A DNA stretch of 64,000 nucleotides from Patescibacteria group bacterium (GCA_035510735.1 DATKGN010000006.1:65429-129428), one strand, 5' to 3'. Shown: positions 7,265 to 63,642, counted from the stretch's first letter. A program made the numbers and translations. The notes: generated from the letters alone by a model not told the origin.

Positions 7265-8017
7265 TCAGATCTTGTGAAGGATTACTTCGCGGGCGCGGGT
7301 TGCAAGGGTGTCATCAAGAGATCTCAGTGTTACATGTTTGTCATATTTCATCTCCAACGCCTTCCCAATAAGCCAGTCGGCGATCATCGGGTTTTTAGGC
7401 AGGAGCGGTCCGTGAAAATACGATCCCACCGAATTTTTATACACCGCGCCTTCGTACCCATCTTCGCCATTATTACCGTAACCCTTGATCACTTTCGCAA
7501 GCGGCTTCATTTTAGGTCCGAGCGTCGTCCGCCCCCCGTGATTTTCAAATCCGACAATCGTCTTCCCTTCAAACCCCGGTAAGTTGATAATTTTGGCGGC
7601 GACATTGCCGATACACCGTTTTGCTTGATCGCCGGGGTGGATGGTCACAAGATCAAAAATACCAGCGCCGGGGATATCCTTTCCCTGATACGGGCGGTAA
7701 TAATGACCGACAAACTGGTAGGCAGCACAGACAAATAGCGCAGGGATCCAGCTCTCTACCATCTTGGCAACGACAGGGCCTTTATTGCCTAAGAAATCTT
7801 CGGATGCGAGTTTCTGCTGCCGGTCCTGAGCACCTCCCATGAACAAAAGGTCACAGGATTTGAGTTTACCGATCTTTGTCTCGAGTGTGACCGGTACAAT
7901 GGTCACATCGATACTCCGCCACTGGCACCGGCGCTCAAGGACAATAATATTCCCCCGGTCTCCGTACGTACTCATGAGGTCAGGATAGAGCCACGCGATG
8001 TTTAATTTATAATCCAT
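7265..8017 (-). CDS. gatD: Lipid II isoglutaminyl synthase glutaminase subunit (CobQ-type GATase)
   Basis: MDYKLNIAWLYPDLMSTYGDRGN... is a typical GatD N-terminus, with the catalytic Cys context FVCAAYQ. Paired with murT. Start trimmed to the internal Met. Confidence 0.8.
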   Translation of the reverse strand: MDYKLNIAWLYPDLMSTYGDRGNIIVLERRCQWRSIDVTIVPVTLETKIGKLKSCDLLFMGGAQDRQQKLASEDFLGNKGPVVAKMVESWIPALFVCAAYQFVGHYYRPYQGKDIPGAGIFDLVTIHPGDQAKRCIGNVAAKIINLPGFEGKTIVGFENHGGRTTLGPKMKPLAKVIKGYGNNGEDGYEGAVYKNSVGSYFHGPLLPKNPMIADWLIGKALEMKYDKHVTLRSLDDTLATRAREVILHKI

Positions 8018-8030
8018 AATTTTATTCTTG

Positions 8031-8123
8031 TCATTGCGAGTCGAGTCTTCGAGACGCGGCAATCTCTTCAATTAATTCAGATTGCTTCGCCCCGTCAGCT
8101 GACGGGGTCTCGCAATGACATTA
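8031..8123. repeat. 11-bp perfect long-range inverted repeat (gtcattgcgag / ctcgcaatgac) enclosing an 18-bp palindrome (ccccgtcagctgacgggg) and the motif tcgagtcttcgagacg
   Basis: Read directly from the sequence, in the murT-gatD intergenic region. Confidence 0.5.
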
Positions 8124-8128
8124 TTGTA

Positions 8129-9424
8129 TTACAGTATTTTTCTCCCCCCTACAATTTTCCTCACTTCGAGCATTGCCGAATAGGTCGATAAAACATATAA
8201 GATGCCGCCCTGCGGCGTAAGTTGCAGGCCCTGTTTTATAGCGTGCCGCAGGTCCGGTTCCACATGCGGTTTCCTCATTTCGCCGGCTGAATATTGTACA
8301 CGGATCGCCATATCATATACGCGGTCGCCCGTTACAACAACTTCCACATTTTTCGGAACCGTTTCAAAATCCACGTCCCAAATCCAACTCACGTCGCGTC
8401 CGTCAGGTATCCGGTCGTTAAGGGCGAAAAGTATTGCCGCGGGCTTACTTTCAAGCACCGTCCGCAAGGACGCATTAAACCCGGCAGGATTTTTCGAAAG
8501 AAATACTTTGATTTTTTTGTCGGCGACGGCAAATTCTTCCTGACGCCCGAATGCGGGCGCAAATCCGGTTAACGCAGTCGTAATGTGATCGTCGGTGATA
8601 TGACACTCGCGGGCAGTAAGGACGGCAGCGAGCGTATTGTAGCGGTTGTAGAGACCCGGGAGCGGTGACTGCCATGACGAGAGATCCAATTTTGGCCTCG
8701 TCTCACCGCAGACGCTGCAAAACCATTCTCCGATATGGGAAAAATAATTTACTTTGTAGGAAAGCCGTGCGCCGCAAAAGAGACAAAATGTCGAATCCGT
8801 CGCATGCTCCATTTTGGGGGCAGCAAGCGATGGGTCGTCAAGACCGAAATACTTCACCTTCGCCTTCACATCTTTTGCAAGAGAACTAACCAGCGGATCA
8901 TCGGCGTTCAGAATAAGCGTGGTTCTCTCATCAATAGTGCGTAGAGCTTTTTGCCATTTTTCCGCAATCACGTCGACCTCGCCATAACGGTCCAACTGAT
9001 CACGGAAAAGATTAAGGATGACGATGAATTTTGGCGCAATGTAGCGCATTACAATGGGGAGCGAGTTTTCATCGATCTCAAAAACCCCGAAGTCTCCGTT
9101 CACACGTCCACCACGGGTCGTATGTTCAATACAGGCCGATACGACACCATTGAGGAGATTAGCTCCACTTTTATTATGGACGACGGATTTTCCCTCTTTC
9201 TCTAAAATCGTTTTTATCATGAGGGACGTTGTCGTCTTGCCGTTTGTGCCGGCAACGAGAATTATCCCGTCTGTAATATGCGTTCCGAATTCACCAAGAA
9301 TGTGAGGCGACATCATGAGGGCAATCTCTCCGGGCCAGGTCGCACCGGCACCCAGATGAAAGGTTTTACTTGTCCACGAAACGAATTTACCTGCCGCTAC
9401 AGTCAGCCGATGCTTGAAGCTCAT
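8129..9424 (-). CDS. murT: Lipid II isoglutaminyl synthase, Mur-ligase-like subunit
   Basis: Mur ligase P-loop AGTNGKTTT plus a Cys4 ribbon CLFCG...CSVCG. 431 aa, adjacent to gatD. Confidence 0.85.
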   Translation of the reverse strand: MSFKHRLTVAAGKFVSWTSKTFHLGAGATWPGEIALMMSPHILGEFGTHITDGIILVAGTNGKTTTSLMIKTILEKEGKSVVHNKSGANLLNGVVSACIEHTTRGGRVNGDFGVFEIDENSLPIVMRYIAPKFIVILNLFRDQLDRYGEVDVIAEKWQKALRTIDERTTLILNADDPLVSSLAKDVKAKVKYFGLDDPSLAAPKMEHATDSTFCLFCGARLSYKVNYFSHIGEWFCSVCGETRPKLDLSSWQSPLPGLYNRYNTLAAVLTARECHITDDHITTALTGFAPAFGRQEEFAVADKKIKVFLSKNPAGFNASLRTVLESKPAAILFALNDRIPDGRDVSWIWDVDFETVPKNVEVVVTGDRVYDMAIRVQYSAGEMRKPHVEPDLRHAIKQGLQLTPQGGILYVLSTYSAMLEVRKIVGGRKIL

Positions 9425-47129: not shown

Positions 47130-48275
47130 CTATTTGTTATATTTACTGATGTTCAAAACTATACCCATTGCGGCAAATAAAATAATAAAACTGGAACCAC
47201 CGTACGATACAAACGGCAGCGGTACACCCGTTAAAGGAATAACCCGTACCATCGCCCCTAAATTAATAAGCGTCTGGACCGCGATCCATGACGATATCCC
47301 GAGCGTTAACAACCGGGAAAACGGATCCGGAGCATGAACTGCAATCCGAAAACCTCGCCATATAATAAAAAGAAACAATACTATTGTTGCTATTGCACCG
47401 ACGAACCCTGTTTCTTCACCTATGATGGCAAAAATGGAATCGGTATTTGCTTCCGGAAGATATTCATACTTTTGCCGGGATTTCCCTATCCCCACCCCCG
47501 TCCATCCGCCGGAGCCGAGTGCGATTAATACTTGCCGGATTTGATACGAAGAACCTAATGGGTCACTTTGCGGATTTAAGAATGTTGTAAGTCGGGCAAC
47601 CCGATACGGTGCAATAAGCGCCAACACCAAGACGCCCCCCGCAATAACGGGAAATAGTAGGGCGAGATGATGAATGGGTGACCCGGCAAAATAATACATA
47701 CAGATACCAATTAATAAAATAATAATGCTAGTACCCAAATCGGGTTCAATCAAAACAAGACCGACGGTCATGAGTAATAATAAAAGAAATGAAAAGAATC
47801 TATTATGTTCGGGATGAGAAAACCATGCGGATAAATATATAATTATCGCGAGCTTCGAAAGTTCAGCAGGCTGCAGTACAAACAAACCGAGATTAATCCA
47901 CCGGTGTGCTCCCAGCGCATGAACGCCTAATCCCGGCAAAAAAACTGCTAATAACAGAAACATTGTTCCAAAAAGAGCGGGAAGTGCAAATTGATACCAT
48001 ACTTTATAGTGAATTGTTGAACAAATGATAAAAACGATTGCACCGACAAACAACCATTTCAGTTGCTCATTTACATAATAATATTGATTGGAGAAGTCAC
48101 GAATCGCTATTGCAACCGATGAGTCATACACCATGAGAACTCCGAACAAAGACATAATGAGTATTCCCAAAATTAACAGTTTATCAGCGCCATGACCTGC
48201 CTTATGCTTCTGGTGTACGGCCAAATGTTTAAGCGTTGCGGCGACTGATGAAAATATCGATTTCATGCGTTTCAC
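47130..48275 (-). CDS. ftsW: SEDS-family lipid II flippase / glycosyltransferase FtsW
   Basis: 381 aa with about 10 TM helices, between murD and murG. Confidence 0.85.
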   Translation of the reverse strand: MKRMKSIFSSVAATLKHLAVHQKHKAGHGADKLLILGILIMSLFGVLMVYDSSVAIAIRDFSNQYYYVNEQLKWLFVGAIVFIICSTIHYKVWYQFALPALFGTMFLLLAVFLPGLGVHALGAHRWINLGLFVLQPAELSKLAIIIYLSAWFSHPEHNRFFSFLLLLLMTVGLVLIEPDLGTSIIILLIGICMYYFAGSPIHHLALLFPVIAGGVLVLALIAPYRVARLTTFLNPQSDPLGSSYQIRQVLIALGSGGWTGVGIGKSRQKYEYLPEANTDSIFAIIGEETGFVGAIATIVLFLFIIWRGFRIAVHAPDPFSRLLTLGISSWIAVQTLINLGAMVRVIPLTGVPLPFVSYGGSSFIILFAAMGIVLNISKYNK

Positions 48276-49501
48276 TTTCCTAAATTACGGGCATAGTGTT
48301 GGAACAGATTGCCTTTTTCTTCGAAATTTTTCCAAATGCTATAACTTGGTGAGGCGGTGGAAAGAAGACATGATGACCCTTGTGGCGTATGTTTATACGC
48401 GAAAGAAACCGCTTCTTCCATATTTGATGTTGAAAGTACGGTAAAATCTTCTTTAGGATACTCGTTCAATAATTTAAAGATAGTAATACCGCTGTCAGGA
48501 AACAATACTATATAACGTATCTCCCGTTCATGGATGAGCCGTATAAGTGATCGAAAATCATAGCCTCTGTCCTGGCCGCCCAAGAAAATTGTCTTCACGG
48601 AATCGATTGCAAGAATCGCACTTATCGTAGATTCAGGAGTGGTTGATATCGCATCGTCATAAAATGAAATCCCATGGAATATTCCGACAAGCTCCAGTCT
48701 GTGAGGCAAAGGGTGAAAGGCGCGAACGGCAGTTTGCATAATATCGGTTGGGATATCAAATATTTTTCCTACTGTAACCGCTGCACGGACATTATCATTA
48801 TTATGTTTTCCTAATAAGGGGATAACAGTATCACTGAAAGGCAATTTTTCTACATAGGGCACTGACTTTGCTTTTATTGATAACGATAATTGCTTTAACC
48901 GGTCAAACTTCGGATTAAATACGAAAAAATCTTTGGGTTTCGAAAAAGAAACGATCCTTTTTTTCGCCTCCCAATACGCCTCCACGGATCCGTGATAATT
49001 CATATGTTCGGGGAAAAAATCTATAAACACAGCTATGTGCGGTGAATAGGCAATATCATCCAGCTGATAACTTGAAAGCTCGCACACATACATGTCATCG
49101 CTTCCCTTTTCAGATAATAATTCAGTTAACATAGGCTTTCCGATATTTCCCACAAGATGAGAGCGTCGCCCCGATCCAAGCAATATGTCATGGATGAGTG
49201 AACTCGTTGTGCTTTTTCCTTTTGTTCCCGTTACGCCCACCGTAACACCCTTCGTGTTCGCAAAGAATATATTCGTTGCGGTTGTATAAGGAACATAAAT
49301 AAGTTCTTTCTTGATCCCTGGGGATTTAATTACTAAATCATATTTATCCTGCCCGGATAAATATTCCGGTCCGTCTTCTCTGTCAACAATGTCAACAGTT
49401 GCCGACGGGACTTTCTCACGTAAAAATTGTTCCGTCGATTTGCCCTCAATACCGAATCCCGCAATAAGAATTTTTTTATGTTCAAGGTCGTTCAGTTTCA
49501 T
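48272..49501 (-). CDS. murD: UDP-N-acetylmuramoylalanine--glutamate ligase
   Basis: N-terminal Rossmann GFGIEG, Mur P-loop GVTGTKGKSTT. 409 aa. Confidence 0.85.
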   Translation of the reverse strand: MKLNDLEHKKILIAGFGIEGKSTEQFLREKVPSATVDIVDREDGPEYLSGQDKYDLVIKSPGIKKELIYVPYTTATNIFFANTKGVTVGVTGTKGKSTTSSLIHDILLGSGRRSHLVGNIGKPMLTELLSEKGSDDMYVCELSSYQLDDIAYSPHIAVFIDFFPEHMNYHGSVEAYWEAKKRIVSFSKPKDFFVFNPKFDRLKQLSLSIKAKSVPYVEKLPFSDTVIPLLGKHNNDNVRAAVTVGKIFDIPTDIMQTAVRAFHPLPHRLELVGIFHGISFYDDAISTTPESTISAILAIDSVKTIFLGGQDRGYDFRSLIRLIHEREIRYIVLFPDSGITIFKLLNEYPKEDFTVLSTSNMEEAVSFAYKHTPQGSSCLLSTASPSYSIWKNFEEKGNLFQHYARNLGK

Positions 49502-50850
49502 ATCGCGGGTAGTAGAGATATAAATTCGCTAGGAATATTATGATGATCAGATGCTGACCTCGCGAACCCGGCAGATAATGGTTTTTGATTTAATAAGGTA
49601 GTGAGTGAAGGCAATAATGTTTTTATAACGATGTCGTCGTGAAACTCTCCTCGTTTCAAAATCATAGCAAACGCATACAACGACTCCTCGGGCGTTCCGA
49701 CGCATTCAAACGGTTTAAATCCCTCAACTCCTATCAGTTGTTTATACAGCCCTAAAAGACTAATGTCCGATAACAAATTTTTGTTAAAAATAGTAACGAC
49801 GGTCTCCTTTGGTAAAAAGGCAGCAAGGATGAGAAATACAAATGCACATTTTGGACAGACACCGCACCATTTTGTAGAAGGTTTTATACCGGCGATTTTA
49901 AAATTCGTATTACAACTCGTAAAAGCTTCAAAAAACTTTGGATAGTTACAAAAAATCTCAGCAACTCGAATTTCCTTAACGGGTCTCAGGAATGAAAAAC
50001 AATTCAAATCAGGAGAGATATATTTCTTTATATATTCCTGGAGTAACAGTTCAAATTCAAAAGATTTACTCCACTGATGATTAACCTCTTCCCCTAAATA
50101 TCTGACGTTTCCATAATTCGCGCTCTCTTCGTTAGAAGAAATCACATAGCGGTAATCAAACAGGACTGCTGAAAGGACACCAACCATCATATAGATGGCA
50201 GTAATAGGAATATGCCCATTATAAACCTGAGGTTCCTTATTCAACTGAAATAGTTGGGGATCAATTAATCTCCCCACAGTCATAGCAGGCTTACCTAGAA
50301 TTCCCGCCACGTCAGATTGAATCGCGTGTTTATTTAGAGTAAATAGTGAAAATTCTTTGTGAGATTTTGCCAGTAACTCTGACGTAACAATTGAATCCTT
50401 TCCTGCACCAAGCAGGACAAGTGATCTGTTCATGAATGATTTCCGGGGTAATTGAGGGCGAAGCCGATCGTCAAACGGGAACTGAAGCAACTTTCGAAAA
50501 TCGATGGAATTCTTATAATAAAATTCCCCGAGTCCCTTCGTATACAGAATATTCCAAAAATCAGCCTGTTTCCGCGTAAGACTGTATGTTTCTATAGATA
50601 TTTTTTTCGGGCTATACGTCTTCCAGTAGCTGATCCCTAAAACGAGATGAAGCATTTGCAGTACTCCCGAAAGAGTTTCCTTCTCCACATCCCGGAGAAC
50701 ATCTTTTGTAACATTTAGAATAGTGAGGCGTTCAGTAAAATTGTATGAATTCCGTGCAGTTTGAAGTGTATAGTGAAAATCAATTGTTCCTTCGGTTAAC
50801 CGCGCTTCATATCGGGTAAAAATAAAATGGGTATTAGTCTGTTGACCCAT
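49498..50850 (-). CDS. Uncharacterised ~450-aa protein with a PP-loop-like motif and a CxxCxxC motif, embedded between mraY and murD
   Basis: LLGAGKDSIVTSELLAK resembles the SGGxDS PP-loop context seen in ThiI/AsnB-type enzymes. C-terminal CGVCPKC. Start uncertain: 50850, 50898 or 50934. Confidence 0.55.
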   Translation of the reverse strand: MGQQTNTHFIFTRYEARLTEGTIDFHYTLQTARNSYNFTERLTILNVTKDVLRDVEKETLSGVLQMLHLVLGISYWKTYSPKKISIETYSLTRKQADFWNILYTKGLGEFYYKNSIDFRKLLQFPFDDRLRPQLPRKSFMNRSLVLLGAGKDSIVTSELLAKSHKEFSLFTLNKHAIQSDVAGILGKPAMTVGRLIDPQLFQLNKEPQVYNGHIPITAIYMMVGVLSAVLFDYRYVISSNEESANYGNVRYLGEEVNHQWSKSFEFELLLQEYIKKYISPDLNCFSFLRPVKEIRVAEIFCNYPKFFEAFTSCNTNFKIAGIKPSTKWCGVCPKCAFVFLILAAFLPKETVVTIFNKNLLSDISLLGLYKQLIGVEGFKPFECVGTPEESLYAFAMILKRGEFHDDIVIKTLLPSLTTLLNQKPLSAGFARSASDHHNIPSEFISLLPAI

Positions 50851-50861
50851 ATGCTTGGTAT

Positions 50862-51911
50862 CTAATACAGCGGCTGTTTCGTGATGAGAGACAGCCATAA
50901 TCCGAATACGGCAAATACGATGCTGATGATCCAAAACCGCATGACAATTTTAGGCTCCGGCCACCCGTTGTATTGAAGCCACAAGTGAAGCGGTGCCACA
51001 GAAAAAAGTTTTCTTCCGAAAAACTTTTTCCAAAATAATTGCAGAAATGATGATGAGACCTCAACAACGAATACAGCGCCTATGATAACGAGTGCGGGAG
51101 CTTTACCCAGAATTAACCCGACAACGGCGAGTGTTGCGCCGAATGATAACGCTCCAACGTCGCCGAGAAAAATTCTTGCCGGAAAAATATTGAAATACAA
51201 AAATGCGATAAGGCTTCCGAGCCAAATCGCGATAAATACGGAGAGTGGCGAATCAAGAATCGACGCGGAAATAATCCAAAATGCGGTAAGTGCGATAAGA
51301 AGAACTCCCGAAGCCATACCGTCTAATCCATCTGTAATATTAAATGCGTTCGCAAACGCGATAATGATAAACGAGGATATAAGAATATATATCCAACCTA
51401 TATGAATCGTACCGTAAAGCGGAACGTAAAATATATCAATTTTTAAATCGTGCACAAGCCAATAGCTGATGATGCCAGCTAAGATGATCTCTAATATTAA
51501 TTTGTGGCGAAGACGAAGCCCAAAAAAACCTGTGGACGCCCATAAAAACGTTTTTTTTGCATCATCAAGTAAACCCAATAGGCCAAATGAAACAAATGTA
51601 AAAAGAATAATTTTAATTTCGGACACCATGGGATACACTGAGGTTATCGGAATCCAAAAGTACCTCATGATGAGAAGGGCAAGCGGAACGATGATGGTCG
51701 TCAATAGAATGATCAGTACGCCTCCTCCAACCGGAGTGCCTGCCTTTTTCTGATGAAACCGGTCAAAAATAGGGGTCCGTTTATCAAACGCATCCAGCGT
51801 TTTTTGCCTTAGTCGCTGAAATCGCCATTTATACAACAGCCGGATAAACGGAACATAAAGCAAACTCGCACAAAACCAGGAAAATAATAATAAACCAAGT
51901 AAAAATCCCAT
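50862..51911 (-). CDS. mraY: Phospho-N-acetylmuramoyl-pentapeptide transferase
   Basis: About 10 TM helices, motifs NAFNITDGLDG and DVGALSFGA. Start trimmed to MGFLLGL. Confidence 0.85.
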   Translation of the reverse strand: MGFLLGLLLFSWFCASLLYVPFIRLLYKWRFQRLRQKTLDAFDKRTPIFDRFHQKKAGTPVGGGVLIILLTTIIVPLALLIMRYFWIPITSVYPMVSEIKIILFTFVSFGLLGLLDDAKKTFLWASTGFFGLRLRHKLILEIILAGIISYWLVHDLKIDIFYVPLYGTIHIGWIYILISSFIIIAFANAFNITDGLDGMASGVLLIALTAFWIISASILDSPLSVFIAIWLGSLIAFLYFNIFPARIFLGDVGALSFGATLAVVGLILGKAPALVIIGAVFVVEVSSSFLQLFWKKFFGRKLFSVAPLHLWLQYNGWPEPKIVMRFWIISIVFAVFGLWLSLITKQPLY

Positions 51912-51915
51912 AGCG

Positions 51916-52290
51916 TTATATTCCGAAACGGGGCGCCAGATAAGGCAGATATATTGTGCAAGCGACAATCACGGCACCCATTGCTATCATGAGCATCATA
52001 CCTGCAGATACGTCTTTTGCTATTCTCGCCTCCTCCCTCCATTCTTTCGTAATTAAATCTGTCATCGCCTCCAACGCGGTGTTAATCATCTCCCCTGCCA
52101 AACCCAACATAACCGTAAACACAATGATTGCCATTTCTACGGAGGTGATATGCAGATAAATACCTAGTAAAACGGCAAAACCAGCGAGAGTCAAATGAAC
52201 CCGGAAATTAGGTTGGGTCGTGAGTGCCCACATAAGACCCCGAAACGCGTTCTTAAATGAAATATGATGCTGTCGTAACGCCCTCATCAT
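51916..52290 (-). CDS. dgkA: Diacylglycerol/undecaprenol kinase family protein
   Basis: 124 aa, 3 TM helices, EMINTALEA motif. Confidence 0.7.
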   Translation of the reverse strand: MMRALRQHHISFKNAFRGLMWALTTQPNFRVHLTLAGFAVLLGIYLHITSVEMAIIVFTVMLGLAGEMINTALEAMTDLITKEWREEARIAKDVSAGMMLMIAMGAVIVACTIYLPYLAPRFGI

Positions 52291-52345
52291 AAAAGTTCCC
52301 TCTTTCTAAGTATAGAGTTTCAGGCAAAGAAACACAAACCGGGGA

Positions 52346-53356
52346 CTAGTATCCCCGAAGCTTGCGTCGTACGGCTTCAATGGATTTCGGAATCAAATAG
52401 AACGGGGAAAACGCATAGTCCTGAGCGTGAATATAGTTTATTTCACGTCCTCCGAATCCCTTTTTGAACAGTGTTATTCCCCGCCATGGGTGGTTTGGCT
52501 TATCATCAGGCGCTATTCCATAAAAATTGTATACTATAATTCCTCTTTTTTTAGCCTCACGAATCGCCTCCCATTGCACGAGATATGAAACCGGGGTTTT
52601 ACTCATGAGTGAGGCACCATGATGATAAATCGCCTGATTTCCGTAAAATAACAGTATTGTGCTAGCAATGAGATCCTTACCATCAAATCCAAGTAATAAC
52701 AACGCGTTATTCTCTTTGGCAAACAATTCAAATTCCTCAGAAATTGACGTATGAGCAACGAAACCATGCCTCCTTGATGTTTCCTCATATAGTTTGTAAA
52801 AATACCGTAAATCCTTCTTCTCTGTCGTCTTCACAACCCTGACGCCCAGCTTTTGCGCTTGACGGATCTCATATCGCGTCGTCTTGCGCATCCCCATAAG
52901 GAGTTCCTCTTCAGTTTTATTTAAATCCAGTACCCAACAACGCTCTGCGTCCACTTCATGTATAGAGGCCGGAATAAAGTGCAACTCCGACAAAAATTTG
53001 TGAGCTTCCGGCGTATTTATAATAAGCGGACTAACCCGCAAAAACCATGCGTGTTCTTTCAGGGCCAGCGGCTTCAACAGAGAAATAAATTCTCGCCAAA
53101 AGGCATTCGTTTGATCCCGCCAAATCGGTCCGTGACGCACATGCAGGAATGTCCCTCTTCGCGCACGGACAACAAAAATCTGCGCAATGCCGATTAATGT
53201 ATTGTTGTCAAAAATCCCAAGCCTATGGACGGTCTGACCGGTTTTTTTCTGCACTTCACCCCAAGTCCAACTCTGAAACAAAGCCTCAGGAGAATTTGTA
53301 AGGAGAAAATTTTCCCATTGTTTCATTGAATCAATTGATGTCAATCGCAAGTTCAT
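52346..53356 (-). CDS. FemAB-family peptidoglycan interpeptide-bridge aminoacyltransferase
   Basis: QSWTWGEV... N-terminus and a 336-aa two-GNAT-like fold typical of FemX/FemAB. Confidence 0.7.
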   Translation of the reverse strand: MNLRLTSIDSMKQWENFLLTNSPEALFQSWTWGEVQKKTGQTVHRLGIFDNNTLIGIAQIFVVRARRGTFLHVRHGPIWRDQTNAFWREFISLLKPLALKEHAWFLRVSPLIINTPEAHKFLSELHFIPASIHEVDAERCWVLDLNKTEEELLMGMRKTTRYEIRQAQKLGVRVVKTTEKKDLRYFYKLYEETSRRHGFVAHTSISEEFELFAKENNALLLLGFDGKDLIASTILLFYGNQAIYHHGASLMSKTPVSYLVQWEAIREAKKRGIIVYNFYGIAPDDKPNHPWRGITLFKKGFGGREINYIHAQDYAFSPFYLIPKSIEAVRRKLRGY

Positions 53357-53392
53357 GGTTGTATTGTACCTTAGACAGCCTAGTAATTGAAT

Positions 53393-53731
53393 CTATGAGC
53401 GCACGAGTGAATGAAGTATCGTCGAAATAATAGAAAGAAGTATTGAACCGATAAGCGCCGTTACAAAGCCGTCTACTTTAAATCCTGGAGTCAACGCGCT
53501 TGCTAAAAGCAGCATACATGCATTAATAACAAATGTAAAAAGCCCGAGCGTAATGATCGTAATCGGCAAAGTCAAAAGAAGGAAAACCGGCTTCACAAGA
53601 GCATTGACTAACCCGATAACTGCGGCAGCTATAAGCGCTGACCAAAAATCGTGTATATGGATCCCCTGTAGAATTCTAGAGACCAAATATAATGCGACAG
53701 CATTTAAAAACCAATTGGCGATGAATTTCAT
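53393..53731 (-). CDS. Four-TM phage holin superfamily IV-like membrane protein
   Basis: 112 aa with a GLVNALVKPVFLLLTLPITIITLGLF core. Confidence 0.6.
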   Translation of the reverse strand: MKFIANWFLNAVALYLVSRILQGIHIHDFWSALIAAAVIGLVNALVKPVFLLLTLPITIITLGLFTFVINACMLLLASALTPGFKVDGFVTALIGSILLSIISTILHSLVRS

Positions 53732-54390
53732 ATCACTATTCTATGATACACTTTTTCATCCTTCACCGTCGTTGTTTCACCATGACCCGGATAAAGAACG
53801 GTAGCACTCGGAAAACGCAAAATTCTATGGATTGAATGATCAATTTCAGCTTTACTCGAGTAAGAAAAATCAGTTCTCCCGATAGCTCCCTGCGCAAAGA
53901 TTGTATCCCCGACAAAAACAGAATTACTTGATGAAAGTGATAAACATACGCTCCCCGGAGTATGACCCGAAGTTGACAATACAGAAACGAAGCTTTGGCC
54001 AAACTGTATTTTATCCCCATTTGTCATAAGATGATCTACCTTCGGTGGAGCTTCTATGACAACATGTTCTAAGAAATACTCAGCGGTTTCCTTCATCCGT
54101 TTAACCAAAAATGCATCAGCTTCATGTATATAAAATGGAATATGATAAATCATTTGAAGCTCACTGACCCCCATAATGTGATCAAAATGGCCATGAGTTG
54201 CAATAATCCCCGTAGGGATACAGTGCAGTTGTTCTGCCTGTTCTGCTATATAATTCCCCTCGTCGCCCGGGTCAATAATAATTGTTTTGTCAGTTGAAGT
54301 ATCTGTGACAAGATAACAATTTTCTTCCATCTTACCTACTGTAAATGTACGTATCCGTACCGGTGATACGCTCATTTTTTTCATACGCAT
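53728..54390 (-). CDS. MBL-fold metallo-hydrolase
   Basis: ATHGHFDH (HxHxDH) motif. 220 aa. Confidence 0.75.
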   Translation of the reverse strand: MRMKKMSVSPVRIRTFTVGKMEENCYLVTDTSTDKTIIIDPGDEGNYIAEQAEQLHCIPTGIIATHGHFDHIMGVSELQMIYHIPFYIHEADAFLVKRMKETAEYFLEHVVIEAPPKVDHLMTNGDKIQFGQSFVSVLSTSGHTPGSVCLSLSSSNSVFVGDTIFAQGAIGRTDFSYSSKAEIDHSIHRILRFPSATVLYPGHGETTTVKDEKVYHRIVI

Positions 54391-55616
54391 TTCTTTATAA
54401 CAAAGTCAATCTGCCGGGAAGTTAAGAGCGTCGGGAAATTAAGAATGTGTTTGGCAACCGACTCCGCACGTGGACAGGAGCCGCGAACGTATGATACGGA
54501 CTTAAAATCAACCCCAACCGGATCAATAACATTATGGTACCAGTTTCCAAGTAATATTCCTTCATTCTTTGCATTACGTCGGAGGCGTTCCGGATCAACC
54601 GCCAAAACCGGAAATCTCAGATATATAGATTCCTTCGGATATGAAAGAAGCTCAAATCCTTTGGCCTTTTCCAAAACTGTAATGTATTTCGCCGCACGCT
54701 CTTTACGGATTGCATTGTACCTAGTCAATTTCGCAAGCTGTTTTGTGAGCAACAGCGCTAAACCGTTCGGATACTTAGCGGGGAAGTCTATTGGTTTCCT
54801 CCCTTGCTTTTCAATAGGATATACCGGAAATGACAAAAGTTTAATTCGTTGAGATAAAACAAGAATTACCTTTCCTAATCCGATATTGTAGATGGGCAAA
54901 ATTATAGAAAAAACAACCGGATGAATTAATTGCTGGAAAACCCAAAAACGTGATGGGTATAACAGGTGTTTGTGAAAGTTTTTTAATTTTGTCCATGTTT
55001 CACCGTGAGATTTAGAAATAATCGCCATGCCGCCAAAAACGCTTGATAGTACCTTATCGCGGCCGAAACTGAAAAATGCGGCATCTCCGAATGTACCAAC
55101 CTTCCTTCCTTGGAACGTTACCCCCAAACTATGCGCACAATCTTCTATAACAAATAAATGATGCTTCCGCGCAAATGTCATAACCGAATTCATATCTGCG
55201 GGGAGTCCCAATGTATGCTGCACAATAATAGCCCTGGTTCTTTTCGTTACTTTCTTTGCCGCATCGACAATATCAATGTTGAGCGTCGCGTCAATATCAA
55301 CATATACCGGCTTCGCTCCTGTCCACAAAACACTGTTCGGTACTGCAACACACGTAAATGCCTGAACTAACACTTCATCATTTCGACCGATGTTAAATGC
55401 ATCTAAAAGTGCATAGAGAGCGGACCTGCCGCTATTGAATGATAGTGCGTGATTACCTGAAAAATTCCTTTCAAACCATTCTTCCGTACGTCGCACCGCA
55501 CTTCCACGCATCCACCGCCACGGTGAAAGAAGTATCTGCAGGGTTAGCCACACATCATCAGACTCTGTGTTAGGGGATAATGATCCTGAAATTACTTTTC
55601 GAAAATATTTTAGCAT
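54381..55616 (-). CDS. DegT/DnrJ/EryC1/StrS-family PLP-dependent sugar aminotransferase
   Basis: FSFGRDKVL lysine motif and an AAT-fold N-terminus. 411 aa. Confidence 0.8.
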   Translation of the reverse strand: MLKYFRKVISGSLSPNTESDDVWLTLQILLSPWRWMRGSAVRRTEEWFERNFSGNHALSFNSGRSALYALLDAFNIGRNDEVLVQAFTCVAVPNSVLWTGAKPVYVDIDATLNIDIVDAAKKVTKRTRAIIVQHTLGLPADMNSVMTFARKHHLFVIEDCAHSLGVTFQGRKVGTFGDAAFFSFGRDKVLSSVFGGMAIISKSHGETWTKLKNFHKHLLYPSRFWVFQQLIHPVVFSIILPIYNIGLGKVILVLSQRIKLLSFPVYPIEKQGRKPIDFPAKYPNGLALLLTKQLAKLTRYNAIRKERAAKYITVLEKAKGFELLSYPKESIYLRFPVLAVDPERLRRNAKNEGILLGNWYHNVIDPVGVDFKSVSYVRGSCPRAESVAKHILNFPTLLTSRQIDFVIKKCV

Positions 55617-55628
55617 AGATCTACAAAG

Positions 55629-57089
55629 CTATTTTAGTGATAATCGTAATGCTTTCGCCGCCTCTCTCCCTTTAAATAAGACTGTGTCTCCGCTTGAAAC
55701 CGTACTTTCAATATATTTCGCGGTATCTACGGATGACATAACTGCTACTTTCATTTGTCTGTTTGATGACCTAGCCCCCGCCATAAACGACTTATTATAA
55801 TTTGCGTTTGTTAAAATAATACTATCGCATGTGTTTCCCGCATACGCCCCTATCTCACGATGACTCTCCTGCGCATATGAACCTAACTCAATCATAGGCT
55901 GAAAGACGAGAAATTTTTTACCTTTTCTTGTCGATAAAAAATCGATTGCAGCCTTTGCCGCATCAGGATTATTGTTAAATGTATCATCTATAAACAAAGA
56001 CCTGTTTATACCCTTTATTGGGGTCATTGTCTTATCGAAAGGATGAATCAAACGGCATGCCCGCGCCGCCTCATCTAGGGTCATACCACTCTCAATGGCA
56101 ACTGCAAGGGCAGCCAAAACATTGCTAGCCTGATGGAGGCCGTATAATGTTGCGACGATTTGCGTAGACGTTTTGCCGAAGTGATATATAAACTTAAGAC
56201 CTCTTTCTGAGGAGGTTATTTGATCAGCCCGATACTCAGCCTGTACTGATTGTGCAGATTTTTTTGTTGTATATAACCGTACACTTACTCCATCCTTTCT
56301 TGCCCATCCTGACATTGTCCGTGTGAATTCATTATCCGCATTAAAGAGTGCAACTCGCTTACCAGATAAACCGCGGATCAGTTCATACTTCGCTTTCATG
56401 GTCGTCTCAATACTGCCAAATAAATCCTGATGTTGTGCATTAATCGCAGTCACGACACCGATTTCGGGCCTTACTATTGAACACATCCGTTCGATTTCCC
56501 CCCGTTTGTATGCCCCCATCTCAACCACAAATACCTCATGCTCCGGACGTAATCTTTGTATGACTGTTTCGGCAATTGCAATAGGAGAATTTTTACTTGC
56601 TTCCGTCTTAAGAGTTCTATATTTCTGACTCAGAATGGTATATAAAACCTCTTTGGTTGATGTTTTACCGTAGCTGCCGGTTATACCAATAACGAGCATT
56701 TTTTTATGCGATCGGAGAATATTTGTGGCTTTCCGGATAAGATATTCGTGATACAGATATATCGGAATTTTTGAGAGAAACACCATGAATGCGCTAATCG
56801 GAAACGATAGCAAATCGACAATAAGTAATCTGATAAGAAAAGAAGGTGTTACCATCGACACAAATCCGCCAACGATAATACAGCTTCCGGTAAAAACGAA
56901 TAACGCCCTCGGACCAAACGGTGGTTTTCGAAAACGGGGAAATAAAATGTTTTTTCCTTCTCGGGTATGAAGATGAATAATCATCCGGTCAAAACGATAC
57001 TCTTTTACATACCAAAGAGCCGTATACGTTAATAAATTACAAATAATTCTTATAATCCAAACGATCGCTATTATATATATAAGTAACAT
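55629..57089 (-). CDS. murF: UDP-MurNAc-tripeptide--D-Ala-D-Ala ligase with three predicted N-terminal TM helices
   Basis: Mur P-loop GITGSYGKTSTKE and a MurF-like C-terminal MIELGSYAQESHREIG. The first ~125 aa are hydrophobic helices in place of the usual N-terminal domain. Confidence 0.75.
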   Translation of the reverse strand: MLLIYIIAIVWIIRIICNLLTYTALWYVKEYRFDRMIIHLHTREGKNILFPRFRKPPFGPRALFVFTGSCIIVGGFVSMVTPSFLIRLLIVDLLSFPISAFMVFLSKIPIYLYHEYLIRKATNILRSHKKMLVIGITGSYGKTSTKEVLYTILSQKYRTLKTEASKNSPIAIAETVIQRLRPEHEVFVVEMGAYKRGEIERMCSIVRPEIGVVTAINAQHQDLFGSIETTMKAKYELIRGLSGKRVALFNADNEFTRTMSGWARKDGVSVRLYTTKKSAQSVQAEYRADQITSSERGLKFIYHFGKTSTQIVATLYGLHQASNVLAALAVAIESGMTLDEAARACRLIHPFDKTMTPIKGINRSLFIDDTFNNNPDAAKAAIDFLSTRKGKKFLVFQPMIELGSYAQESHREIGAYAGNTCDSIILTNANYNKSFMAGARSSNRQMKVAVMSSVDTAKYIESTVSSGDTVLFKGREAAKALRLSLK

Positions 57090-61454: not shown

Positions 61455-62912
61455 TTACGTAATTGATTTATAAATTTCCTTGCCCCACAAATAAATATTG
61501 CCGGCTCCCATAAAAATCACGATATCATCTTTTTTTATCATCGAAGCAAGCACTGCATATACCGCCTCAGAATTTTGTGCGTAACATACGACATTTTTGT
61601 GTTTTTTTACTTCATTCGCAAACACCTCACCGGTCATCCCAAGCGTTTCCGTTTCACGGGCCGACCCGTAAATATCGGTCGTCACGACGATATCTGCGTC
61701 TTTAAATGCCAGACCGAACTCGCTTAAAAGTGATTTTGTACGGGAGTATGTATGTGGTTGAAATACTGCAATTACACGGTCCTTGGGATACCATGATCTT
61801 ACTGCTGCCAGTGTTGCCGCAATTTCTTTAGGATGATGCGCATAGTCATCGAAGAACGTTACACCGTGTGCCTGCCCGATTTCTTCAAATCTGCGTTTCG
61901 CCCCACGGAATCGAGAAAGACCAAGCCGCACCTGTTCCCACGAAAGACCTGCCTCGTGAGACGCGACTGCTGCAGCAAGCGCATTTAACACATTGTGGAC
62001 CCCTGGTACATAAATAGTAAATATTCCGATCCCTCCTTTATCTCTGTATATTTCAAATGTTGTTTTGCCTCTCTCAAATGATATATGTTTCGCCTGATAC
62101 CGAGCTTTGTCCGAGCTGCCATAGGTGATGATTGTTGAGTTACCTGATTTTTTGAGTAGCCCATGACTAGCCGGGTCATCTATATTGACAATACATATTT
62201 TCCGGCCGATTTGACGTTGAAGCAGTTTTTGAAAAGCACGCTGTACCGCCGTAAGCGAACTATATGCATCAGGATGATCATAATCAACATTAGTTACAAC
62301 CAGAATCTCGGGAGTTTGCCAAAGAAACCGGGGCGTCGGGTCATGAGTCGGATCAGTTACATACTCATCCGCCTCAGCAATAAAATAATCTCCGCGACCA
62401 AAATGACCGGGCGGCCCAAGCCCCCGCACCTTACCGCACCCGATGGCATACGACGGATCAACGCCGGCAGAAATTAGAATAGTCGCAATAATTGCAGTTG
62501 TTGTTGTTTTTCCGTGGCTTCCTGCAACTGAAATCTGCCGCTTTCCACTCATCGCAAGTCCCAATGCTTTCCCATGAGGTAATGTCGGAATACCGAGTTT
62601 TCGCCCTTCAACAACTTCAGGATTATCTCTCCCGCCGTGGGCTCCTGTATAAATAATAAGATCAGGCTTTATATGTGAAGAAATGTTGTGAGCGTCAAAA
62701 CCTTTTAGCACCTGTATTCCTTTATCATGTAAGACAATATCACTCGGAAACTCGTCTCCGACATCCGAACCGATCACCTGACATCCTTTTTCTTTTGCCC
62801 ACACGGCCAATGACGCCATGGCGATTCCCTTAATACCTACAAAATAGAGAGAATGGAGATTCGAAAGCGATGTAATGTCACGATTTTTCACGCTATTCAT
62901 ATCGTACTCCAA
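61455..62912 (-). CDS. murC: UDP-N-acetylmuramate--L-alanine ligase
   Basis: N-terminal FVGIKGIAM and a Mur P-loop GSHGKTTTT. 485 aa. Confidence 0.9.
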   Translation of the reverse strand: MEYDMNSVKNRDITSLSNLHSLYFVGIKGIAMASLAVWAKEKGCQVIGSDVGDEFPSDIVLHDKGIQVLKGFDAHNISSHIKPDLIIYTGAHGGRDNPEVVEGRKLGIPTLPHGKALGLAMSGKRQISVAGSHGKTTTTAIIATILISAGVDPSYAIGCGKVRGLGPPGHFGRGDYFIAEADEYVTDPTHDPTPRFLWQTPEILVVTNVDYDHPDAYSSLTAVQRAFQKLLQRQIGRKICIVNIDDPASHGLLKKSGNSTIITYGSSDKARYQAKHISFERGKTTFEIYRDKGGIGIFTIYVPGVHNVLNALAAAVASHEAGLSWEQVRLGLSRFRGAKRRFEEIGQAHGVTFFDDYAHHPKEIAATLAAVRSWYPKDRVIAVFQPHTYSRTKSLLSEFGLAFKDADIVVTTDIYGSARETETLGMTGEVFANEVKKHKNVVCYAQNSEAVYAVLASMIKKDDIVIFMGAGNIYLWGKEIYKSIT

Positions 62913-63642
62913 TCACGCCTAACATTTCACCAAATGTTTCTTTGCTACCCTTGCGGAATGAGTAATACAGATTATGCTGACACGATGTGCAGGTCACTGC
63001 GGCATCGATATGCTCCCTCGATATTCCATCCCGCTCAAGCTGTAATAAATTGACATATCCGATATCCAAATGCCATAAACCTTCAATTTGTGAAGCAACG
63101 TTGGGATCATTTCCATATTCTTTTATAAACTGCTTCGCCCTGTCCTCTAGCACGCTATAACAACACATGCCGATATGAGGGCCTATTGATACATAAATAT
63201 CATCTGTCTTAACCCCAATGGAAACCAACGATGTAATAACATTATGAGTAATTTTTTTGCAAGTTCCCTTCCACCCGGCGTGCGCAACTGCTATCGCCTT
63301 ACCCTTTTTATCAGCGAATATGAGAGGAACGCAATCGGCTATACGCACACCGATGCTCAACGGTTTATGTGTGTTGTGGTCTAAACGGGCAACAATAGCA
63401 TCTGCCGACGACAACAACCGGCTGTTGGTGTTGTCAATAATTTCAACACGATCACCATGAATCTGTTCACTTAAAACCAATGAATCCGGTGAAAGGTTCA
63501 GAGTCTGAAGAAAACCCTTTCGATTATGCGTAAGACGCATATCACCGAGTGCGCGCGTCGAATACCCATGGGTAAATTTGGGAAATGACCCAATGAGACT
63601 CGATTGAACATACGATGAACCCATAATGAGAGGCATAATCAA
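62893..63642 (-). CDS. pgeF: YfiH/PgeF (DUF152) purine-nucleoside phosphorylase / peptidoglycan-editing-factor family
   Basis: ADCVPLIF...AHAGWKG motif. 249 aa. Confidence 0.7.
   Translation of the reverse strand: MIMPLIMGSSYVQSSLIGSFPKFTHGYSTRALGDMRLTHNRKGFLQTLNLSPDSLVLSEQIHGDRVEIIDNTNSRLLSSADAIVARLDHNTHKPLSIGVRIADCVPLIFADKKGKAIAVAHAGWKGTCKKITHNVITSLVSIGVKTDDIYVSIGPHIGMCCYSVLEDRAKQFIKEYGNDPNVASQIEGLWHLDIGYVNLLQLERDGISREHIDAAVTCTSCQHNLYYSFRKGSKETFGEMLGVIGVRYE

Follow-up and report, generated by a model that had tools for sequence, protein, structure and literature searches.

A probable MurL–MurD2 module for cell-wall D-glutamate in the division and cell-wall gene cluster of a Patescibacteria bacterium

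MurL, described by Feng et al. in 2017 (as summarised in PMC8788868), is an epimerase that consumes one ATP, forms AMP and works in the L to D direction only; it 'lacks known conserved domains', and adenylation of the alpha-carboxylate of its substrate has been proposed (PMC8788868, PMC5808125). Its partner in Xanthomonas oryzae, the ligase MurD2, adds L-glutamate (L-Glu), and MurL activity has been demonstrated for the X. oryzae, Micromonospora and Salinispora enzymes only (PMC8788868). The pathway has been reported in some Gamma- and Alphaproteobacteria and in Micromonosporaceae, while relatives of 'low similarity' are listed for cyanobacteria, a fungus and an amoeba (PMC8788868, PMC5808125), and a 2021 review regards it as limited to relatively few genera and has proposed it as a narrow-spectrum drug target (PMC8788868). 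Here we have analysed a 64,000-nucleotide stretch of DNA from a Patescibacteria group bacterium (GCA_035510735.1, DATKGN010000006.1:65429-129428; hereafter the window, meaning the whole of this stretch), in which a gene for a 450-residue protein lies between mraY and murD of a division and cell-wall (dcw) cluster. This gene very probably encodes a MurL-family UDP-N-acetylmuramoyl-L-alanyl-L-glutamate epimerase, which would form a two-step module with a MurD2-type ligase encoded directly downstream, and the organism, to judge from this sequence, most probably obtains its cell-wall D-glutamate (D-Glu) by the alternative 'Xanthomonas' pathway.

When the window protein was scanned against NCBIfam, the sole match was NF041275, 'MurL_Xanthmoales' (UDP-N-acetyl-alpha-D-muramoyl-L-alanyl-L-glutamate epimerase; E 6e-111, 371 bits), a family with the EC number 5.1.1.23, that of the partner ligase MurD2 being 6.3.2.53. 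The alignment runs from end to end, with window residues 4–447 (numbered from the ATG at 50850) paired with profile positions 5–443 of 447. A similarly complete alignment, with 34.4% identity over 445 positions, was obtained with the 451-residue X. sacchari MurL annotated by the Prokaryotic Genome Annotation Pipeline (PGAP), which is encoded in the 508-kb record NZ_CP010410.1 (locus L084), reached by tblastn of plasmid records. Alignment of the window protein with 54 of its closest relatives (alignment A1, 55 sequences) yielded 52 invariant residues, and 48 of these are identical in X. sacchari MurL, including the PP-loop, the NHQWSK motif, four clustered cysteines and the KPFECVG motif. Relatives are plentiful: no fewer than 7947 turned up in a set clustered at 90% identity, and 2613 were found among the 50%-identity cluster representatives, of which 1196 have E ≤ 1e-30. 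They carry the precomputed families PF26298 and PF26299, and some of their JGI entries already bear the epimerase name; the MurL family is thus one that databases already recognise. Our own Pfam-A scan of the window protein returned nothing at E ≤ 10, the library used evidently being one without PF26298 and PF26299.

The ligase encoded next to the putative epimerase was compared with enzymes of established specificity. In X. oryzae MurD2 the residues E197 and R358 set the preference for L-Glu, P433 and F435 being close by, and the E. coli MurD counterparts of these four residues are D182, K348, A414 and L416 (E. coli positions are given in the literature numbering, which is the gene numbering minus 1). 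The E197D/R358K double mutant of MurD2 turns to D-Glu, and a K319T change makes E. coli MurD accept L-Glu (PMC8788868). When the window MurD was aligned with the E. coli enzyme, E165, R312, P385 and Y387 were found at the positions of D182, K348, A414 and L416, respectively, and I285 at that of K319; the corresponding residues of X. sacchari MurD2 are E206, R367, P443, F445 and I339. The window and X. sacchari ligases also have an ISTTP motif in common, the E. coli counterpart of which is KATN. Since E165, R312, P385, Y387 and I285 match both the published determinants and the X. sacchari pattern, the window MurD is by every published sequence criterion predicted to be of the MurD2 type, although it is only 32% identical to X. 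sacchari MurD2, is shorter (409 versus 478 residues) and has Tyr rather than Phe at the fourth determinant position.

The same signature recurs among relatives. In five canonical D-Glu ligases (that of E. coli and four from the PDB), Lys at position 319 and Ala at position 414 are present without exception. None of 75 MurDs linked to a MurL has Lys at position 319, where 69 have Ile. Arg stands at position 348 in 72 of 73, and of 72 sequences each, 70 have Pro at position 414 and 70 have Tyr or Phe at position 416; at position 182, 59 have Glu and the other 16 Asp.

The association of the two genes was surveyed in the GTDB set, in which each species is represented by one genome. Two MurL peptide patterns gave at least 600 matched stretches, and of 600 listed, 593 were confirmed as relatives, so that murL relatives occur in at least 593 species-level genomes. 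From the confirmed stretches 80 loci were kept, nearly all labelled Patescibacteria and spanning Microgenomates, Parcubacteria, Peregrinibacteria/Peribacteria, Gracilibacteria and Saccharibacteria. The murD linkage, which an earlier note on this DNA had reported for the window, extends to these relatives: murD is found downstream on the same strand in every one of the 77 loci in which the contig extends beyond murL, and directly after it (fused, overlapping or within 42 nt) in 74. These 77 loci include 30 with a single uninterrupted murL-murD open reading frame (ORF), 32 with overlapping genes (15 through ATGA, as in the window) and 11 with a gap of at most 30 nt, and the mraY-murL-murD-ftsW-murG order of the window is met again in about eleven loci. 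In X. sacchari, too, murL is followed by an overlapping murD in the PGAP annotation, but there the pair is flanked by unrelated genes, whereas in the window it stands inside the dcw cluster.

The fused ORFs are about 780–900 residues long, with MurL N-terminal and MurD C-terminal, and occur mostly in genomes labelled Parcubacteria or Saccharibacteria (loci L013, L015, L019, L023, L026, L027, L029, L030 and 22 more). Similarly, 19 of the best 150 50%-identity representatives are 795–894 residues long, and one of these 19 (P0131) was confirmed by BLASTP to consist of MurL followed by MurD, its MurD part being 50% identical to the window MurD and bearing the same signature. When two enzymes have become fused independently more than once, this is a classic sign of consecutive steps, and MurL and MurD accordingly probably act one after the other. 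The full-length family match, the identity to Xanthomonas MurL, the MurD2-type partner and this linkage and fusion together speak for the MurL-like epimerase that the earlier note had put forward as one possibility; its naming of XOO_1320 as the X. oryzae MurL has to be corrected, XOO_1319 being MurL and XOO_1320 MurD2 (PMC8788868).

Two observations were made on the records used in this survey. Several bins are titled 'Gammaproteobacteria', 'Weeksellaceae' or 'Bacillota' (L002, L004, L006, L013, L025, L027, L032, L060 and L081), and their MurL proteins are 37–48% identical to that of the window; since this is the same range as for loci labelled Patescibacteria, those taxonomic labels are probably wrong. 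The X. sacchari record NZ_CP010410.1 (L084, 4803–7575 in locus coordinates) is filed as a plasmid and bears essential genes of chromosomal type (murL, murD, aspartate kinase/diaminopimelate decarboxylase and ssb), so that a chromosome segment or chromid is the likelier identity.

An AlphaFold (AF2) model of the window MurL, computed on alignment A1, has a predicted local distance difference test score (pLDDT) of 92.6 and a predicted template modelling score (pTM) of 0.92. Its fold matches solved PP-loop enzymes, as the resemblance to PP-loop ATP-pyrophosphatases mentioned in the earlier note had anticipated; the best matches are QueC, Cap9 and QatC, and they are limited to a core of about 180 residues with a sequence identity of about 12–19%. 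The core fold is also that of NAD synthetases and asparagine synthetase, and the nitrile synthetase ArtA is another QueC-like enzyme. In the model the GAGKDS motif, contained in the segment LLGAGKDSIVTSELLAKS that starts at residue 146, comes directly after the first strand of the core (residues 140–146), which is where QueC, Cap9, QatC and ArtA have their PP-loop. Within A1 residues G148, G150, K151 and S153 are invariant and D152 is at least 90% conserved; the relatives' consensus is GGGKDS, and the first position in the window protein is Gly where SGGxDS has Ser. When E. coli QueC was compared by hhalign, the MurL PP-loop was paired with QueC SGGQDS, but the match covered the PP-loop only, with a probability of 6%.

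The second feature in common with QueC is the cysteine cluster. The CGVCPKC motif pointed out in the earlier note is indeed present from residue 329 and belongs to a C-x15-CGxCxxC pattern, as compared with C-x8-CGxCxxC in E. coli QueC; in QueC structures the C...CGxCxxC motif is a zinc site. All four cysteines (C313, C329, C332 and C335) are invariant in A1 and kept in X. sacchari MurL. The NHQWSK motif of the PP-loop domain is kept both in Xanthomonas MurL and in a Pseudonocardia paralog, and the KPFECVG motif, with K379, P380, C383, V384 and G385 invariant in A1, is kept in Xanthomonas MurL; its cysteine, C383, is a candidate catalytic residue. The relationship to QueC is drawn from the structure model and the motifs, a family-level sequence match being absent, and in this form a QueC-like PP-loop ATP-pyrophosphatase core is supported by the model. 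On either side of this core MurL has parts of its own: about 130 residues form an N-terminal domain, and about 100 residues a helical region at the C-terminus. No fold could be assigned to the N-terminal ~130 residues; the earlier note had called the first ~170 unassignable.

Such a core fold is common to the amide-forming enzymes QueC, NAD synthetase and asparagine synthetase, and it is therefore fair to ask whether the window protein is a PP-loop amidotransferase or ligase, which would adenylate a precursor carboxylate, a first step identical to that of MurL, and then transfer ammonia or another nucleophile (compare AsnB/LtsA, NAD synthetase and QueC). We consider this very unlikely. The window protein possesses neither the N-terminal nucleophile (Ntn) glutaminase domain of AsnB/LtsA nor a match to the asparagine-synthetase-type domain, no QueC, AsnB or NadE family match was seen in the NCBIfam and Pfam scans at E ≤ 10, and the hhalign match to QueC did not go beyond the PP-loop. 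The homology to MurL, on the other hand, is full-length; a known lipid II amidation system, MurT/GatD, is already encoded in the window; and an L-Glu-type MurD partner would leave an L-Glu precursor that requires an epimerase. The amidotransferase acting on a precursor carboxylate, which the earlier note had offered as its other possibility, was consequently dropped.

A nucleobase-modification or anti-phage enzyme of the QueC, QatC or Cap9 type, located in the cluster by chance, has even less to recommend it, and we give it hardly any chance of being right: the best structural matches are to exactly these enzymes and the cysteine motif is of the QueC type, but the identity of 12–19% is confined to the ~180-residue core, there are no defence or queuosine partner genes nearby in the window, and neither the conserved MurD fusion nor the strong MurL family match would be accounted for. 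Both of these readings were rejected. The window MurL thus resembles QueC in its fold and probable first step, yet it is not a QueC, and the proposed outcome of its reaction is epimerisation and hydrolysis instead of amide or nitrile formation.

QueC chemistry starts with adenylation of a carboxylate and releases AMP, and a QueC-like PP-loop core is the machinery expected for the first step of MurL, which fits the adenylation proposed for it. The route that we envisage for the MurL–MurD2 pair is the following. MurD2, by its specificity residues, would ligate L-Glu instead of D-Glu onto UDP-N-acetylmuramoyl-L-alanine. MurL would bind this product together with ATP, the beta- and gamma-phosphates of which would lie on the GAGKDS PP-loop, and would adenylate the alpha-carboxylate of the terminal L-Glu with release of pyrophosphate. 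The activated acyl group would make the C-alpha proton acidic, and the stereocentre could then be inverted on the acyl-adenylate itself, by way of an oxazolone that involves the carbonyl of the Ala before it, or as a thioester on Cys383; an oxazolone is the classical racemisation route of activated peptide C-termini, and the thioester, too, would make chemical sense. Candidate residues for the inversion are C383, H213, H258, K262 and, in the N-terminal domain, K77 and K105. The use of ATP would make the epimerisation one-way, and MurE, MurF, MraY and MurG of the same cluster would carry the precursor onward, so that the organism would need neither a free D-Glu pool nor a glutamate racemase. 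For X. oryzae MurL, AMP formation and the need for one ATP equivalent have been reported (PMC8788868, PMC5808125), and the same adenylation chemistry is likely in the window enzyme, to judge from its modelled core.

Several points weigh against this assignment. The score of 371 bits lies below the curated equivalog cut-off of NF041275, which is 700 bits, and the identity of ~34% to Xanthomonas MurL is low. The shortfall would limit automatic naming and not homology, being what is expected for a distant phylum from a model tuned to Xanthomonadales. At the D182 position, 21% of the MurL-linked MurDs have Asp, the residue of the D-Glu-adding E. coli enzyme, and the reaction steps beyond adenylation are inference only. 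The search for a glutamate racemase covered the 64 kb of the window, in which E. coli MurI, used as query for tblastn and phmmer, found no relative (best E about 1); this is a weak test, made with a single query on a small part of a genome of probably ~1 Mb. An active glutamate racemase (MurI) is reported for at least one member of the superphylum, the Saccharibacteria species Ca. Saccharimonas aalborgensis (Penalver et al. 2024, cited in PMC11974145), and the MurL route would therefore not be universal in Patescibacteria. MurI likewise provides the D-Glu found at stem-peptide position 2, but unlike MurL it acts on free glutamate, is cofactor-free and reversible, and has an unrelated fold.

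MurL-like paralogs of ~30% identity are also present on Pseudonocardia plasmids (locus L085, 5959–7359 in locus coordinates, from P. alni plasmid pPaSha1; hits H2 and H4), where they adjoin a WD40 protein and cell-wall hydrolases. Since these paralogs have no murD neighbour and have lost several residues that are invariant in MurL (S74I, N114W, K151R and R289G in the paralog aligned; the window protein keeps all four residues), the MurL family is not functionally uniform. It could accordingly be supposed that the window protein is a diverged homologue with another role, acting on another muropeptide or stem residue or in the recycling or proofreading of L-Glu precursors, while its MurD neighbour adds racemase-made D-Glu. 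The sub-cut-off score and ~34% identity, the Pseudonocardia paralogs, the MurI reported in part of the Patescibacteria and the fact that the gene content seen is that of a 64-kb window would all be compatible with such a role. It is nonetheless improbable in our view, since the window protein keeps nearly all family-invariant residues, belongs to a set of surveyed loci with strict adjacency to murD or fusion with it, and has a MurD partner that lacks K319 and carries E, R, P and Y like the experimentally defined MurD2. A MurL epimerase working on the product of MurD2 agrees better with these observations.

The function and the family are thus those of MurL and MurD2, known since 2017, while the spread in Patescibacteria, the fusions and the QueC-like fold are new to the searchable literature, in which no paper was found that links MurL/MurD2 to Patescibacteria (also known as the candidate phyla radiation, CPR) or MurL to the QueC fold. 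Besides its divergence, the window gene differs from the described MurL genes in its Patescibacteria host and in having relatives that are often MurL–MurD fusions, and it is known here from sequence and a model. The 'few genera' of the 2021 review may be set against a two-gene module, often one fused gene, present in at least 593 species-level genomes. Our results suggest that many ultra-small, host-dependent bacteria rely on scavenged L-Glu for their walls and keep no free D-Glu pool. A more far-reaching proposal, about which we hold slightly more doubt than belief, is that MurD2/MurL is a principal and perhaps ancestral D-Glu route of Patescibacteria and no mere oddity of some proteobacterial and actinobacterial genera, in many lineages as single fusions that could hand on the L-Glu intermediate directly, and that MurL is QueC-derived and might invert its substrate by a Cys383 thioester or an oxazolone, a mode of epimerising a peptide C-terminus that is not known from any enzyme. 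For experimental work, the QueC-like model, the cysteine motif and the short list of invariant residues offer concrete mutagenesis targets, and the natural MurL–MurD fusions could suit structural studies. PGAP labels X. sacchari MurD2 as a D-glutamate ligase. In the window, the 'hypothetical' label at NCBI and the apparent D-Glu-ligase label of its partner are both probably wrong as to function.

The coordinates of the gene pair, its motifs and other genes of the window are collected in Table 1. The maximal ORF, 49498–50934, which the earlier note had given for this gene, comprises 478 residues and opens with a TTG, so that 73 nt of it fall within mraY; the length of ~450 residues stated there is right, but this start probably is not, the likely one being the ATG at 50850. 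The mraY stop codon is at 50862–50864, and this ATG is 11 nt beyond it. The 450-residue product is identical in length and sequence to NCBI VMR81_04560 ('Patescibacteria group bacterium', hypothetical protein, encoded on a contig of 133,987 bp), and its N-terminus, MG(Q/L)QT(N/D)THFIF, is common to the closest relative (P0002). The TTG start within mraY might raise the suspicion of a frameshift artefact, which the earlier note had also considered, of an assembly error or of an ORF present by chance; the intact ORF with a sensible ATG, the identical NCBI protein, thousands of full-length relatives and a confident single-chain structure model refute this, and we regard its probability as negligible.

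Table 1. Features of the murL-murD locus and other cell-wall genes, in window coordinates
Feature	Position	Strand	Basis or remark
GatD (GATase_3)	7265-8071	-	profile match
MurT (MurT_C + Mur_ligase_M)	8129-9424	-	profile match
murD, MurD2 type; key residues E165, I285, R312, P385, Y387	48272-49501	-	TIGR01087, 233 bits; alignments with E. coli and X. sacchari
murL stop/murD start ATGA overlap (translational coupling)	49498-49501	-	read directly from the sequence
murL coding sequence, 450 residues, ATG at 50850	49498-50850	-	NF041275, E 6e-111; identical NCBI protein; AF2 pLDDT 92.6
KPFECVG motif, residues 379-385, with fifth conserved cysteine C383	49696-49716	-	A1
Cysteine cluster C313-x15-C329-G-x-C332-x2-C335; predicted QueC-type metal (zinc) site	49846-49914	-	sequence pattern
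NHQWSK motif, residues 257-262, within PP-loop domain	50065-50082	-	invariant in the 55 A1 sequences
PP-loop motif GAGKDS, residues 148-153; predicted ATP pyrophosphate-binding loop	50392-50409	-	A1, hhalign and fold matches
N-terminal domain, residues 1-130, with invariant motifs LGISYWK and YTKGLGEF	50461-50850	-	presumed substrate-binding or catalytic
mraY, directly upstream of murL	50862-51968	-	TIGR00445, E 2.2e-50; maximal ORF, true start probably internal
murF-mraY interval with five extra genes	51916-55616	-	
FemAB-like gene	52346-53356	-	in window
MurF ORF	55629-57089	-	MurF family match from residue 119
PgeF-like gene (Cu-oxidase_4)	62893-63642	-	

An NCBIfam profile scan identified the neighbours of the gene as mraY (TIGR00445) and murD (TIGR01087), all three on the minus strand, so that an uncharacterised gene between the two and in their direction, as first noticed in the earlier note, was confirmed; its remark that canonical dcw clusters have no gene here agrees with E. 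coli, in which mraY and murD are separated by only 2 nt. The minus-strand run of cell-wall and division genes begins with a murE fragment, a pgeF-like gene, murC, murB, murA, a GlmU-like gene, a hydrolase gene and murF, continues with genes for a DegT-type aminotransferase, a metallo-beta-lactamase (MBL) fold hydrolase, a small membrane protein, a FemAB-like transferase and a DgkA-like kinase, and proceeds from mraY through the putative murL, murD, ftsW, murG, an ftsQ-like gene and ftsA to a probable ftsZ. For ftsQ and ftsZ, the names rely solely on position and sequence: the ftsQ-like ORF has no NCBIfam match, and the ftsZ ORF lies outside the scan.

The MurT/GatD pair and the FemAB-like gene that the earlier note had listed were found as well, the former ~40 kb away from the cell-wall cluster and in agreement with the amidation of lipid II D-Glu mentioned there. 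The five extra genes between murF and mraY, among which the DegT-family match of the aminotransferase covers the N-terminal half only, point to additional modification of the wall precursor. At its N-terminus the MurF ORF is extended by ~115 hydrophobic residues ahead of the family match, and MurF may therefore be membrane-anchored in this organism. Finally, the PgeF-like gene is situated between the murE fragment and murC.

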